A DNA stretch of 64,000 nt from Candidatus Rokuibacteriota bacterium (lineage in GTDB: Bacteria; Methylomirabilota; Methylomirabilia; Rokubacteriales; CSP1-6): assembly GCA_003221635.1 (NCBI GenBank), contig QHSR01000242.1:11396-75395 (forward strand). Direction: 5' to 3'. The notes below the pieces were generated by a model. That model was not told the DNA's origin and did not search any database. It was given only the letters and a program-made list of their open reading frames with translations. The translations under genes and the position numbers were made by a program. This document shows positions 55,150-64,000 of this stretch, piece after piece (within the stretch, counting starts at the first letter, position 1; the number at the start of each line of letters is the position of its first letter).

Positions 55150-56340
55150 ATGTCGGGAGCAACGCGCCTGCGCGCTGAGCCCGTCGCCCTCGTCGCCGCC
55201 GGAGCCGTGACCCCGTTCGGCACCGACCTCGACGCGTTCTGGTCAGGGCTCATCACGGGAAGCGATGGGATCTCGATGATCGAGCGCTTCCCGGTGGACG
55301 ATCTGCGGGTTGGGCGCGGTGGCGAGATCAAGAAGCTCAGGCCGCTGCCCCCCACACGCCACACGGGATGTCGGGCCACGCAGCTTCTGCTGGCCGCGGC
55401 CCAAGACCTTCTGGCCCGTGCCGATATCTCGGCCGTGCCCGAACGCGTGGCGGTCGTTCTCGGCACCGCGCTCGGCGGGGTCGAGCAGCTCGAGCGCGCC
55501 CTGGCGCGGGGGGGCCGTCCACGCCACGCAGCCGGGGCGCTCTACGACAGCCCCGCGCACGCGCTCGCGCGCCGGCTCGGCGCACGAGGCCCCGTGCTCA
55601 CCGTGAGCACGGCGTGCGCTGCGGGGGCGACGGCGCTCGGCATCGGGGCGGACCTGCTGCGCGACGGGGCGGCTGATGTCGTGATCGCCGGCGGCTATGA
55701 TGGCCTCTGTAGGTTTGTGATGCGTGGCTTCGACGCCCTGCGCTCGCTCACGCGCGAGCGCGTGCGGCCCTTCGACCGCCGGCGAAGCGGCCTCCTGCTG
55801 GGCGAGGCGGCGGCCCTGGTGCTGATGACCCGCGACGACCGCAAGGGCGAGCCAAGGCTTGGTAGGCTCCTCGGTCATGCGAGCGCCAGCGACGGTTCGC
55901 ACATCGCCGCCCCTGATCCGAGCGGTCGCGGCCTCGAGTTCGCCGTCCGGGCGGCGCTCGACGAAGCCGCGGTGACGCCGGCCGACGTAGACTTCGTGAG
56001 CGCCCATGGGACCGGCACGCCGCTCAACGACCGAATCGAGGCCGAAGTGCTCAGGCGAACGCTGGGCCACCGCGCCTCGGCGATTCCCGTCAACTCGATC
56101 AAGGGGGCGTTCGGCCACTCGATGGGGGCGGCCGCGGCCCTCGAGGCCATCATGTGCCTTCTCGCCTCGCGCGAGGGTGTCGTGCCTCACACACGCGGTC
56201 TGGAGGAGCCCGATCCGGCGTGTGATCTGGACCACGTGGTCGGGTCCCCCCGTGCCACGCGTCCTCGGATCAGCCTCAGCACCTCGCTGGGCCTCGGCGG
56301 CTGTAACGCCGCGCTCGTCCTGGAAGGTGGGGAGACATGA
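55150..56340 (+). CDS. Beta-ketoacyl-ACP synthase (FabF/KS-alpha-like), catalytic triad present
   Basis: Cys in VSTACAAGATALG, His in SAHGTGTPLND, His in GAFGHSMGAAA. Confidence 0.9.
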   Translation: MSGATRLRAEPVALVAAGAVTPFGTDLDAFWSGLITGSDGISMIERFPVDDLRVGRGGEIKKLRPLPPTRHTGCRATQLLLAAAQDLLARADISAVPERVAVVLGTALGGVEQLERALARGGRPRHAAGALYDSPAHALARRLGARGPVLTVSTACAAGATALGIGADLLRDGAADVVIAGGYDGLCRFVMRGFDALRSLTRERVRPFDRRRSGLLLGEAAALVLMTRDDRKGEPRLGRLLGHASASDGSHIAAPDPSGRGLEFAVRAALDEAAVTPADVDFVSAHGTGTPLNDRIEAEVLRRTLGHRASAIPVNSIKGAFGHSMGAAAALEAIMCLLASREGVVPHTRGLEEPDPACDLDHVVGSPRATRPRISLSTSLGLGGCNAALVLEGGET

Positions 56341-57239
56341 CCGCCTCGCTCGAGGCCCGGTCGGCTGCAGCAGGTTCAGCGAACGCCACGCCGCCGACGG
56401 GGACCGCCGTCGAGGCCGTCGCGGTGCTCACCGGCTGGGGTCACGGCATCCGCGCCTTGCCGGCGGACGCTGAGCGGGCGGCGGCGGGCCGGGCGGTGAT
56501 CCCGCTCTTCCGTCCGGTACTCGAGGGCGAGCGGTTCAGGCGGGCTACTCGGGAGTGTCTGCTGGGCGTGGCGGCCGTGGACGCCCTCCTGCGCGAGAGC
56601 GGCATCACCCGTGACATGATACGCGGAAGCGCGACCGCGCTGATCTACGTCACCGGCGCCGGCTATGGCGCCTCGAATCAGGCGTTTGTCGTAGCGGAGT
56701 CCTTGAGGCAAGCTCGCATCGAGGGTGGCCTGACGGACAAGCGACCCGGCTCGGTCGCATCGAGCGGCACGTTGCACTTCCCGTACACGGCGCCCAGCGC
56801 GATGGCCGGTGAGGTTGCGATCGAGTTCGGACTGACCGGCCCGTATGGCATCCTGATCGGCGGAGCCGCCACGACGATCGATGCCCTCTGGCAGGCGACG
56901 CGACTCCTGGCCGGCGGACGGTGCGAGCGCGCGCTCGTGCTCGCCGTCGAGACCTTCGAGGAGTGTGCCGCCCTCTACGCGCGGGGACGCTGGCTCGTCA
57001 GGCGCCCGCTGGTCGAAGCGGCGGTATGCGCGCTGCTCGTGCCCGGCGCTCTGCGCGCGAGATACGACGCGCCGCGGACGCCGTCGACGCTCGAGACGCT
57101 CGCACGCGTCCGCGCCGGCGAGACGCTCGCGTGCGCGCCGCTGATCGCGCTGGCGCTCGCGCGCGACGGCGGCGCAGCGGGATCGGTCAGCGTCACGGGC
57201 GAATGGCGCGGCCGCCGCGCCGGACTCCACTGGCAGTAG
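56337..57239 (+). CDS. KS-like partner protein lacking the active-site Cys (chain-length-factor-like)
   Basis: ATGA overlap with the upstream KS. Thiolase-fold block AGEVAIEFGLTGPYGILIGGAATTIDAL, where TAC(A/S)S is replaced by GGAAT. Only 300 aa. Confidence 0.75.
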   Translation: MTASLEARSAAAGSANATPPTGTAVEAVAVLTGWGHGIRALPADAERAAAGRAVIPLFRPVLEGERFRRATRECLLGVAAVDALLRESGITRDMIRGSATALIYVTGAGYGASNQAFVVAESLRQARIEGGLTDKRPGSVASSGTLHFPYTAPSAMAGEVAIEFGLTGPYGILIGGAATTIDALWQATRLLAGGRCERALVLAVETFEECAALYARGRWLVRRPLVEAAVCALLVPGALRARYDAPRTPSTLETLARVRAGETLACAPLIALALARDGGAAGSVSVTGEWRGRRAGLHWQ

Positions 57240-57244
57240 TGGTC

Positions 57245-62285: not shown

Positions 62286-63347
62286 AGCCCCTGCGGGTGC
62301 TGCGCGGTTATCTGTTCACCATCATCGGCATCGCGATTGGCGTCGCGGGACTCGTCGCGCTCGGCGCGATGAGTGAGCGCATCGTTCGCTTCATCGAGGG
62401 CGGCGATCGCTTCGTGCTCGGTCAGATCTCGGTCGCCGGGCGGGGGATGGGCATGGGAACCGGGTTCACCGCCGGCGGTCTCCTGCCGGCGGCGACGATC
62501 CGCGCCATTGCGGAGGTTCCGGGCGTATCCGGCGTGCAGGCGCAGGTCATGCTGCCGTTGGACCCGTCGACCTCGCAGTTCATGACGCTCACGCAGGAGC
62601 TGATCCTCGGCGTCGACCTCGCGGTCCCGATGCCGAACCGCCACTACCGCGCGCTGCCCGTGCGCGCCGGGCGGTTTTTCCGGGACGGCGACCGGCGCGT
62701 CGCCGTGGTCGGGGCCTCGTTCGCGGCCTCGCGCGGGCTCGGCGTGGGCGGCCACATGTCTCCTCCGGACGGTGCTCGCCTCGGGCGGCGTACCGCTCAC
62801 GGCGGCTGACCTCAACACCGGCGCCGCGGTCGGATGGCTGGACGGCGACGACCCGGACGCGGTCGCCCTGCGGATCAGGGAGCGTGTGCCCGGCGTCAAC
62901 GTCCAGCTTCCGAGCGAGCTGAGCCGGCTCCTGCGCTCGTCCACGGCCTTCTTCTCCGCGCTGCTCGCCGGCATCGGCGTGCTCGCCTTCGTCATCGGCG
63001 GCCTCTCGCTGGCGAACACGATGGCCGCCGCGGTCTTCGAGCGGATCCGCGACTTCGGTGTCAAGCGTGCGCTCGGCGCCACCGATCTGCAGCTCGGGCT
63101 CGAGGTGCTGACCGAGTCGCTCGCCGTGACGCTGGTGGGTGGGCTCGCCGGTATCGGGCTCGCGCTCGTGCTCGGCTGGGCCATCGACGGCACGGTCGCG
63201 CGGGCGCAGCAGTTGTTCCACTTCTCGCCGCGGCTGCTGGGCGGTGCCCTCACGTTCTCGATCCTGCTCGGCGCGGCGGCGGCGACGTACGCCACCGCAC
63301 GGGTCGTGTCGGTCTCGCCCGCCGAGGCGATCCGCCGGGGGAGCTGA
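62282..63347 (+). pseudogene. FtsX/MacB-LolC-type ABC permease with an apparent frameshift near 62757-62772
   Basis: TM1 and the periplasmic domain are in one frame (VKPLRVLRGYLFTIIGIAIG...LGVGGHM). The rest, including the FtsX TM2-4 region (FFSALLAGIGVLAFVIGGLSLANTM...), is in another frame. Confidence 0.65.
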
Positions 63348-64000
63348 TGCTGCGGGCGGCGGGCCTCGTGAAGTCGTACCGGGCCCCGTCGGGGATGCCG
63401 ATCCGCGTGCTGGCCGGCGTGGACCTCACGGTGAAGGGGGGCGAGATCGTCGTCGTCGCCGGCCCATCGGGCTCGGGAAAGAGCACGCTGCTGAACGTCC
63501 TCGGGCTCCTGGAGGACGGCGACGGCGGCGAGGTGTGGTTCGAAGACACGCGGGTGAGCGCGCTCGGTCGCTCGGCCAGAAGCCAGGCCCGCGGCCGGTA
63601 TGTCGGCTTTCTGTTCCAGTCGTTCCTGCTGCTTCCGTCGCTCACGGCGCTCGAGAATGTGCTGCTGGCGGCGCGGTACGTCGGGCGCTCGGGCGCGGCG
63701 ATGCGCCGCCGAGCGCGGGAGCTCTTGGCGGAAGTCGGCGTGGCGGATCGGATGGACCATTTCCCGGCGCAGCTCTCGGGGGGCGAGCAGCAGCGCGTCG
63801 CCTTCTGCCGCGCGGTCCTGAACGATCCTCCGCTCCTGCTCGCCGACGAGCCGACCGGCAACCTGGACGACGCAAACGGCGCGGTCATCCTCGGCGCCCT
63901 TCGCGGACGGGCGCGCGCCGGCGCCGCGGTCGTCGTCGTGAGTCACCGGCCGGAGGCCGCGGCGGGCGCGAGCGCTCTGTATCGGCTGCGCGGGGGCGTG
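63347..64000 (+). CDS. ABC transporter ATP-binding protein (LolD/MacB-type), 3' end beyond the window
   Basis: My translation starts at the ATG at 63347, which overlaps the permease TGA. Walker [10 protein letters not shown], signature LSGGEQQR, Walker [13 protein letters not shown]. The frame stays open to the window end, which is why it is not in the ORF track. Confidence 0.9.

Follow-up and report, generated by a model that had tools for sequence, protein, structure and literature searches.

What kind of molecule is made by the ketosynthase-rich operon at the end of a 64,000-nucleotide stretch (the window) of contig QHSR01000242.1 from a Candidatus Rokuibacteriota bacterium? Genes were called by listing and translating open reading frames (ORFs) and by scanning the proteins against Pfam and NCBIfam. 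An earlier note on this DNA had delimited a lipid cluster at positions 55150-64000, similar to type II polyketide synthases (PKS) or fatty-acid synthases (FAS), with two ketosynthases (KS1 and KS2), two shorter partners lacking the active-site cysteine (P1 and P2), an acyl carrier protein (ACP), a GT2 glycosyltransferase, a flavin halogenase and an ABC exporter. Each of these genes was recovered in its place, but the extent given was slightly too short, since the lipoprotein gene with which the module begins falls just outside it. The operon is real and is conserved among the uncultured soil Rokubacteria; most likely it builds a specialised, often halogenated chain, which is put on a sugar-bearing membrane lipid and then exported. 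We favour, with belief and doubt about evenly balanced, a vertically inherited Rokubacterial module that would make and export an envelope glycolipid and that is related to the aryl-polyene (APE) lipid clusters, without belonging to that family.

The same module was found in about 70 species-level Rokubacterial genomes in a tblastn synteny table of the fetched loci, and homologues of the partner proteins come nearly all from Candidatus Rokubacteria/Methylomirabilota. The conserved gene order is lipoprotein-(LpxL-like acyltransferase)-KS1-P1-ACP-KS2-P2-GT2-(halogenase)-FtsX permease-ABC ATPase, with the halogenase present in about three quarters of the loci, and the module usually adjoins radC/pyrD. 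A distant clade, with 36-45% identity in the partners, has unrelated flanks (a branched-chain amino-acid transporter, secreted or regulatory proteins) and keeps the set from the lipoprotein to the ABC ATPase alone, so that this set defines the module. Two non-Rokubacterial variants (L061 and L069) were read by ORF calls and tblastn alone; in a third (L067) Pfam revealed no ketoreductase (KR), dehydratase (DH) or starter-loading genes.

Both ketosynthases carry a full catalytic set, namely Cys156/His286/His323/Lys318 in KS1 and Cys152/His285/His320/Lys315 in KS2. In alignments of orthologues drawn from the approximately 70 related loci the Cys, both His and the Lys are invariant, across 53 KS1 and 65 KS2 sequences, which bears out the complete Cys-His-His triads described previously, the classical feature of a KS-alpha. 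That these enzymes might simply be the housekeeping fatty-acid synthase of the organism has a near-negligible probability. KS2 is clearly FabF-like (369 bits against the FabF model TIGR03150) and the locus is conserved among housekeeping genes, but KS1 (268 bits) as well as KS2 remain under the model cutoff of 493.75, Pfam scans of the window proteins revealed no fabD, fabG, fabZ, fabI or fabH next to the module, and besides its Cys-less partners the module includes a GT2, a halogenase and an exporter. A housekeeping locus was ruled out on this cutoff and gene content. Because both ketosynthases are sub-cutoff and fabD/G/Z/I are lacking, we regard the locus as a dedicated type II PKS/FAS-like lipid locus, as had been proposed. 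The top NCBIfam model of KS1 is NF006618, the ApeO subfamily, with 280.5 bits; KS2 scores 303 bits against the same model, whose cutoff is 407 and in which ApeO itself reaches 556 bits. The best structural relative of KS1 is PDB 9S5H. Literature searches on this PDB entry, and on ketosynthases or aryl polyenes in Rokubacteria, returned nothing about the locus.

The arrangement of each ketosynthase with an overlapping, shorter, Cys-less thiolase-fold partner is likewise real and conserved. The position of the nucleophile is occupied by Ala177 in P1 (Ala, Pro or Gly across 46 orthologues) and by Thr123 in P2 (Thr, Asp, Gly or Leu across 37 orthologues), and no orthologue of either has a Cys when aligned to KS/FabF sequences. 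The replacement of the cysteine thus stands, with Ala in P1, one of the residues (Gly/Ala) that had been suggested, but in P2 the residue concerned is the Thr of the NAPTV motif and not its Pro, since a phmmer alignment matches this Thr to the Cys of FabF (1e5m). The first catalytic His of P2 is exchanged for Asn/Ser and the second is retained. P2 is clearly KS-derived as judged by profile comparison (hhalign against KS2, 99.8% probability). The N-terminal domain of P2 is matched by P1 with 94.5% probability (E 8e-8), which places Ala177 at the Cys position, and P1 is regarded as a half-size partner because it consists of this N-terminal KS domain with just about 60 more residues. It belongs to a narrow family, to which 334 out of 1.84 billion representatives were assigned at E<=1e-3, and sequence and profile searches of the PDB gave either nothing or weak FabH matches around the nucleophile elbow.

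A translationally coupled pair of an active ketosynthase and an inactive thiolase-fold partner is shared with Iga11-Iga12, AmcF-AmcG, AntD-AntE and the actinorhodin ketosynthase/chain-length factor (CLF), and KS/CLF-type structures (6kxd, 6smo, 1tqy) are among the PDB matches. The Rokubacterial partners differ from the aromatic-PKS chain-length factors, which carry Gln at the Cys position, a residue never found there in P1 or P2; moreover P1 keeps one thiolase half, and the module has neither the KR and DH of the highly reducing type nor the cyclases of the aromatic type. The earlier note had also called the partners unusually short. They are short, but this is no oddity, since ApeC, the chain-length factor of the APE pathway, is a single-thiolase-domain protein of about half the size of its ketosynthase (PMC8358021). 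P1 and P2 resemble ApeC in being short and Cys-less and differ from it in Pfam family: ApeC matches PF13723 (225 bits) and the two partners match PF00109 alone. One database protein, P0115 (593 aa, PF00109 and PF00535), is an apparent fusion of P2 and the GT2. The genes of these two overlap by ATGA, so that a single indel would fuse them, and the fusion may be an artefact or may be real and hint at physical coupling.

The relation to aryl polyenes was addressed by direct protein comparison with the ape cluster of E. coli CFT073. KS1 shares 34% identity with ApeO (173 bits) and KS2 37% (190 bits). The ACP, whose DSL serine does not vary among 62 orthologues, has 30% identity with ApeE (E 4e-12). 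The GT2 matches residues 9-224, the N-terminal half, of ApeJ (27% identity, E 5e-16) and the LpxL-like acyltransferase residues 367-550, the C-terminal half (31% identity, E 1e-17); since they match opposite halves, ApeJ is split into two genes in Rokubacteria. ApeJ-like matches were obtained by tblastn in 66 loci. The acyltransferase has the HX4E motif in the form HIGNWE and fits the C-terminal half of ApeJ and the model of the phosphatidylinositol mannoside (PIM) acyltransferase better than the LpxL models. Among NCBIfam models the GT2 fits best, as does ApeJ, to that of the polyprenyl-phosphate GalNAc synthase PpgS, although its 138 bits are under cutoff; the DxD motif of the GT2 is invariant among orthologues, and a C-terminal hydrophobic segment (residues 290-315) agrees with the membrane anchoring that had been predicted. 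By these matches the GT2 is a sugar transferase of the lipid-phosphate/polyprenyl-phosphate type. With a GT2 of this type and no obvious polyene glycosyltransferase, the suggestion of a possibly glycosylated polyene found no support. ApeJ itself is described as placing GalNAc on a glycerol-phosphate lipid, after which it acylates this sugar with the ACP-bound chain (bioRxiv 10.1101/2020.12.19.423268).

In E. coli CFT073 and Xenorhabdus doucetiae, the APE clusters (apeA-R) share with the module a FabF-like ketosynthase with a short Cys-less partner, an ApeE-like ACP and the ApeJ functions, as well as a lipoprotein gene in first position and a dedicated exporter. The differences are numerous. 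All 17 E. coli Ape proteins were searched by tblastn against the approximately 70 loci (about 10 kb on each side) and the window, and no homologue of ApeP, ApeI, ApeK, ApeH, ApeD, ApeC, ApeL, ApeM, ApeN or ApeB was found in either. Matches to the short-chain dehydrogenase/reductase (SDR) ApeQ occurred in four loci alone, among them the module-less L072, and their position relative to the module was not checked; the window holds one such SDR at 2476-3183, about 50 kb away. The module therefore lacks ApeQ, ApeI/P, the thioesterase ApeK, the starter ligase ApeH, ApeD, ApeB and a second ACP, in line with the earlier remark that no KR, DH, thioesterase or aryl-starter gene is visible (the four ApeQ-like matches being unplaced). 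It has two KS/partner pairs where APE clusters have one pair and a homodimeric ApeR, a split ApeJ, a halogenase, and a MacB-type ABC transporter in place of the resistance-nodulation-division and LolA/LolB-like export proteins ApeM/ApeL/ApeN. Furthermore, it is confined to Rokubacteria, and APE clusters occur in Proteobacteria/Bacteroidetes. The published APE core consists of KS, ACP, CLF, DH, KR and ApeM (bioRxiv 10.1101/2020.12.19.423268), and without KR, DH, an ApeC-family CLF or ApeM the module lies outside this definition. By these comparisons it shares ancestry with the APE pathway without being a member of the APE family. The resemblance to aryl-polyene/xanthomonadin clusters noted at first sight accordingly reflects real homology, with ApeO and ApeE and with the two halves of ApeJ, but does not extend to family membership.

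A genuine aryl-polyene or xanthomonadin-type pigment cluster has nevertheless to be weighed. Here a 4-hydroxybenzoyl-type starter would be extended to a ring-halogenated polyene, anchored as a glycolipid in the outer membrane, with the missing enzymes encoded elsewhere. Besides the homologies just given, the half-size Cys-less partner recalls ApeC, the halogenase belongs to a class that acts on carrier-bound phenols and pyrroles, and xanthomonadins and some flexirubins are halogenated. We nonetheless consider such a pigment unlikely: the tblastn search found no DH, starter ligase, ApeC or ApeM, and KR, DH, CLF and ApeM are part of the core as published; both ketosynthases are under the NF006618 cutoff, the ACP is under that of NF006617 (30.5 bits, cutoff 70), and the partners are outside PF13723. 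The product may be an aryl polyene, but that KR, DH and starter enzymes are lacking altogether speaks against one of the canonical kind.

The FAD enzyme of the module bears directly on the nature of the chain. Its PDB matches are the halogenases CndH (8.7e-68), CmlS (1e-61) and PltA (3e-59), followed by ChlB4, Mpy16 and Bmp2, and those to geranylgeranyl reductases are far weaker (1e-13). GxGxxG, Lys96 and both Trp of the WxWxIP motif are found in 44 of 44 orthologues, the Ile and Pro of that motif in 43 of the 44. Its identification as a halogenase from the WxWxIP motif was thereby upheld. By these motifs and matches it is a genuine flavin-dependent halogenase that resembles the carrier-protein-dependent type; with CndH, PltA, Mpy16, Bmp2, ChlB4 and CmlS it shares the fold, both motifs, the catalytic Lys and a similar size. 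CndH, PltA, Mpy16, Bmp2 and ChlB4 mostly act on substrates bound to a carrier protein. The CndH/PltA-type enzymes belong to nonribosomal peptide synthetase or PKS antibiotic clusters, whereas the Rokubacterial one belongs to a lipid module. Its absence from about 12 otherwise intact loci indicates a tailoring or accessory function. Flavin halogenases require an electron-rich carbon, and the presence of one argues for a phenolic or enolisable site in the product.

This requirement weighs on a further explanation, in which the module would supply lipid A, or some other glycolipid of the envelope, with a special or very long fatty acid of the saturated or hydroxy kind, by analogy with the rhizobial acpXL-lpxXL system. 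Housekeeping FabG/FabZ/FabI would carry out the elongation, an LpxL-type enzyme the attachment, and ArnC/ArnE/ArnT-like proteins the periplasmic addition of sugar. In rhizobia, acpXL-fabZXL-fabF2XL-fabF1XL-adhA2XL-lpxXL serves the synthesis of very-long-chain fatty acids, with FabZXL as its sole reductive-type enzyme (PMC11901934). Compared by description, this locus and the module have in common a special ACP, two genes of the KS family and an acyltransferase of the LpxL family, as well as a dependence on the housekeeping FAS for most reductive steps (PMC11901934). The dedicated ACP, the two KS-like pairs and the acyltransferase with its HX4E motif are therefore as expected for such a pathway, as are the absence of reductive enzymes of its own, which recalls the rhizobial cluster with FabZXL alone, the ArnE-like EamA and ArnT-like PMT_2 proteins encoded downstream, and the near-universal presence at a fixed core-genome site by radC/pyrD, which would suit a structural envelope component. 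On the other hand, a GT2, a halogenase and an ABC exporter are all absent from the rhizobial locus, and the module has no FabZ or alcohol dehydrogenase, so that counterparts of FabZXL and AdhA2XL are missing. KS2 and P2 are far under the cutoffs of NF005076 and NF005084, models which may represent FabF1XL/FabF2XL, and the acyltransferase is closer to the C-terminal half of ApeJ and the PIM model than to the LpxL models. Above all, a halogenase in about three quarters of the loci would have no obvious substrate on a saturated chain. We give this explanation a rather low probability.

Conversely, the halogenase would be well accommodated by a non-reducing, type II PKS-like pathway to a short poly-beta-keto or cyclised head group (a resorcinol, a pyrone or a small carbocycle) that is halogenated and carried on a sugar-lipid. 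Its analogue would be AmcF-AmcG, a pair that makes a ring rather than a chain. Apart from the four unplaced ApeQ-like matches no locus has a KR or DH, the halogenase requires a phenol or enol, the cispentacin AmcF model gives 247 bits with KS1 and 260 with KS2, and AmcB is the best NCBIfam model of the ACP. However, all these AmcF/AmcB-type scores are under cutoff, and no AmcH-like loading enzyme is present; cyclases and aromatases were likewise absent from the Pfam results of the window and of L001, L039, L058, L063 and L067, and neither partner has the Gln by which classical chain-length factors are marked. This makes the pathway quite improbable.

For the envelope glycolipid that we favour, the following course of reactions is proposed. 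KS1-P1 and KS2-P2 would form KS/CLF-like heterodimers and iteratively condense malonyl units on the dedicated ACP. Since reductases and dehydratases are absent from the module, processing of the beta-keto groups would come from the FAS II of the cell or be skipped. Where present, the halogenase would modify the ACP-bound intermediate at an activated site, phenolic or enolisable. The GT2, resembling the N-terminal half of ApeJ, would put a hexosamine-type sugar on a lipid phosphate, the presumed acceptor, and the LpxL-family acyltransferase, resembling the C-terminal half, would then move the finished chain from the ACP to this sugar-lipid. Finally, the FtsX/MacB-type ABC transporter would extract the product from the inner membrane, presumably outwards, possibly with the help of the lipoprotein and its Cys-His-Asp residues.

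Concerning export, the permease and ATPase show the domains of the MacB/FtsX type VII superfamily (PF12704, PF02687 and PF00005), and the permease has hydrophobic segments at its N-terminus and at residues 259-377. The "LolCDE-like" exporter of the earlier note is correct only at this superfamily level. LolCDE proper was rejected, since there is a single permease without any LolC/E model among its NCBIfam matches, and the ATPase reaches 174 bits against the LolD model TIGR02211, whose cutoff is 307.75. The full-length ATPase of the public contig L001 scores 183 bits with YbbA, 181 with DarD, 174 with LolD and 154 with DevA, all sub-cutoff. An FtsX permease with a MacB-like periplasmic domain and a LolD/DevA/MacB-like ATPase are common to MacB, DevCA, LolCDE and the module, which differs from these systems in its single permease gene and in the absence of a membrane-fusion protein (MacA/DevB) and of LolA/LolB, and which reaches the cutoff of no family among them. 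DevBCA is an exporter of heterocyst glycolipids.

Both exporter genes are present in the window, but its permease gene is frameshifted. By blastn the window is 99.9% identical over 13 kb to L001, and 119 nt of the latter (L001:11811-11929) are missing between 62757 and 62758, a junction with only 2-3 nt of microhomology. The deletion splits the gene into two ORFs (62282-62809 and 62604/62772-63347) and leaves PF12704 and PF02687 in different frames, whereas the permease of L001 is intact (394 aa). Either the gene may have become a pseudogene in this strain, or the assembly may be wrong here.

Several points weigh against the glycolipid that we favour. KS1 and KS2 are about equally close to FabF and ApeO, and the comparison of P1 and P2 with ApeC by hhalign is not significant (E 0.29 and 0.094). 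The AF2 model of P1, from a 22-sequence alignment, was set aside with a pLDDT of 34. Nor is a starter-unit or aromatising enzyme visible that would supply the electron-rich carbon for the halogenase. Polyprenyl phosphate is the usual substrate of PpgS/ArnC-type GT2 enzymes, and the ArnE-like and ArnT-like genes downstream suggest that the sugar could instead reach another acceptor in the periplasm. In this lineage the acyltransferase gene is unlinked from the operon, about 5.7 kb past the window end, while in most others it lies directly 5' of KS1. Owing to the frameshift in the permease, this copy of the module may not export. Finally, no Rokubacterium has been cultured and no product is known.

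The coordinates of the module genes are given in Table 1. The coupling of the genes by overlaps of 1-4 nt could be read directly from the junctions, which are, in sequence, ATGA, GTGA, GTGA, ATGA, ATGA, GTGA and TGATG; specifically, the start of P1 overlaps the stop of KS1 (ATGA) and the start of KS2 that of the ACP (GTGA). The final 15 nt of the ABC ATPase gene are lost to the window edge. A 33-codon ORF at 55077-55178 (+), between the lipoprotein gene and KS1, is annotated as a gene in the ENA record and overlaps the lipoprotein stop codon (ATGA); it is a doubtful gene, and nothing supports its reality. Rfam, promoter and terminator scans of 52-64 kb revealed no convincing regulatory element.

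Table 1. Genes of the Rokubacterial module in the window.
Feature	Position	Strand	Basis and remarks
Lipoprotein (DUF8321/DUF8322)	54283..55080	+	Pfam assignment; first gene of the conserved module
KS1, FabF-superfamily ketosynthase	55150..56340	+	PF00109 2.5e-31, PF02801 3.4e-31
P1, Cys-less half-size thiolase-fold partner	56337..57239	+	PF00109 alone, 1e-08
ACP, dedicated acyl carrier protein	57406..57681	+	PF00550; GLDSLDF motif
KS2, FabF-like ketosynthase	57678..58856	+	PF00109 3.4e-33, PF02801 7.8e-40
P2, Cys-less KS-like partner, reduced second domain	58853..59893	+	weak PF00109
GT2, membrane-anchored	59890..60951	+	PF00535 3.1e-22
Flavin-dependent halogenase, 445 aa	60948..62285	+	PF04820 1e-27
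FtsX/MacB-type ABC permease, interrupted	62282..63347	+	PF12704, PF02687
ABC ATPase, MacB/LolD/DevA/FtsE group	63347..64000	+	PF00005 1.7e-31

The lipoprotein gene is located directly 5' of the module in 54 loci, including the distant clade with unrelated flanks. The protein has a signal peptide with lipobox Cys22 and a Cys73/His202/Asp222 triad that is invariant in an alignment of 23 homologues. In its AF2 model (pLDDT 71) Cys73 is at the start of a helix; Foldseek with this model gave no match at E<=1e-3, and weak ones to papain-like cysteine peptidases (best 8.6e-3). Its role in the module is speculative.

Downstream of the module one often finds genes for an EamA protein that resembles ArnE, a PMT_2 protein that resembles ArnT, an HpnJ-model radical S-adenosylmethionine (SAM) enzyme, a polysaccharide deacetylase and a monogalactosyldiacylglycerol (MGDG)-synthase-like glycosyltransferase. 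In L001 they occupy 13211-21338, about 0-7 kb past the window end, together with the LpxL-like acyltransferase gene (18912-19793) and those of a methyltransferase and a luciferase-like oxidoreductase, and the deacetylase and the MGDG-synthase-like gene are divergent there. The HpnJ-model protein, about 2 kb past the window end, scores 751 bits against an equivalog cutoff of 577.6, and its gene adjoins those of the deacetylase and a glycosyltransferase, a set shared with HpnI/HpnK/HpnJ. A hopanoid cluster was considered for this reason and rejected, as no other hopanoid genes are found in the approximately 21 kb seen. B12 radical-SAM genes 3' of the module in L058, L067 and L069 suggest a functional link to the remodelling of a sugar head group, and the HpnJ-type enzyme may remodel the sugar of the module or may serve a separate pathway. 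In L058, of the distant clade, a gene at 14178-15371 between the ABC ATPase and the HpnJ-like gene encodes a 397-aa membrane protein with a weak match to CDP-alcohol phosphatidyltransferases (25 bits), which hints at phospholipid head-group chemistry.

Upstream of the module the window, with a G+C content of about 70%, holds the housekeeping genes argS, ftsH, folP, glmM, tsaE, radC and pyrD. A cobalamin riboswitch (RF00174, 88.8 bits) at 32648-32846 (+) precedes an operon with cobU/cobT, a periplasmic-binding protein and a FecCD-type transporter; as it spans these positions, the ORF listed from 32715 has too early a start. A full Rokubacterial module was also seen on a contig labelled as the archaeon Nitrosotalea sp. 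(L054, DATIWG010000035.1, 285 kb), the fetched stretch of which has 72.7% G+C; this contig is probably mis-binned.

APE lipid clusters are regarded as the biosynthetic gene cluster family with the widest distribution in bacteria and are known from Proteobacteria and Bacteroidetes. The module is a stripped-down and rearranged relative of these clusters that is fixed in the core genome of the Rokubacteria, which are common in soil and uncultured. It would offer a candidate lineage-specific, possibly halogenated membrane lipid as a biomarker, as well as a test case for pairs of ketosynthase and chain-length factor working without dedicated reductases. Since the domains of ApeJ are separate genes here, the module also lends independent genomic support to the two-step role proposed for that protein. 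Going further, one might picture an undescribed class of core-genome envelope lipids, with a chain from the two KR/DH-less KS/partner pairs that is halogenated on its carrier and esterified to a hexosamine-phosphate lipid by the split ApeJ, and with an HpnJ-type enzyme that, outside hopanoid biosynthesis, may form a cyclitol head group. We see this as possible, on balance doubtful. If true, it would mean a new lipid class and a new role for type II PKS-like enzymes, one in building the envelope as a primary function and not in pigment formation, and the interest would be greater still if the product were a new lineage-wide halogenated lipid.

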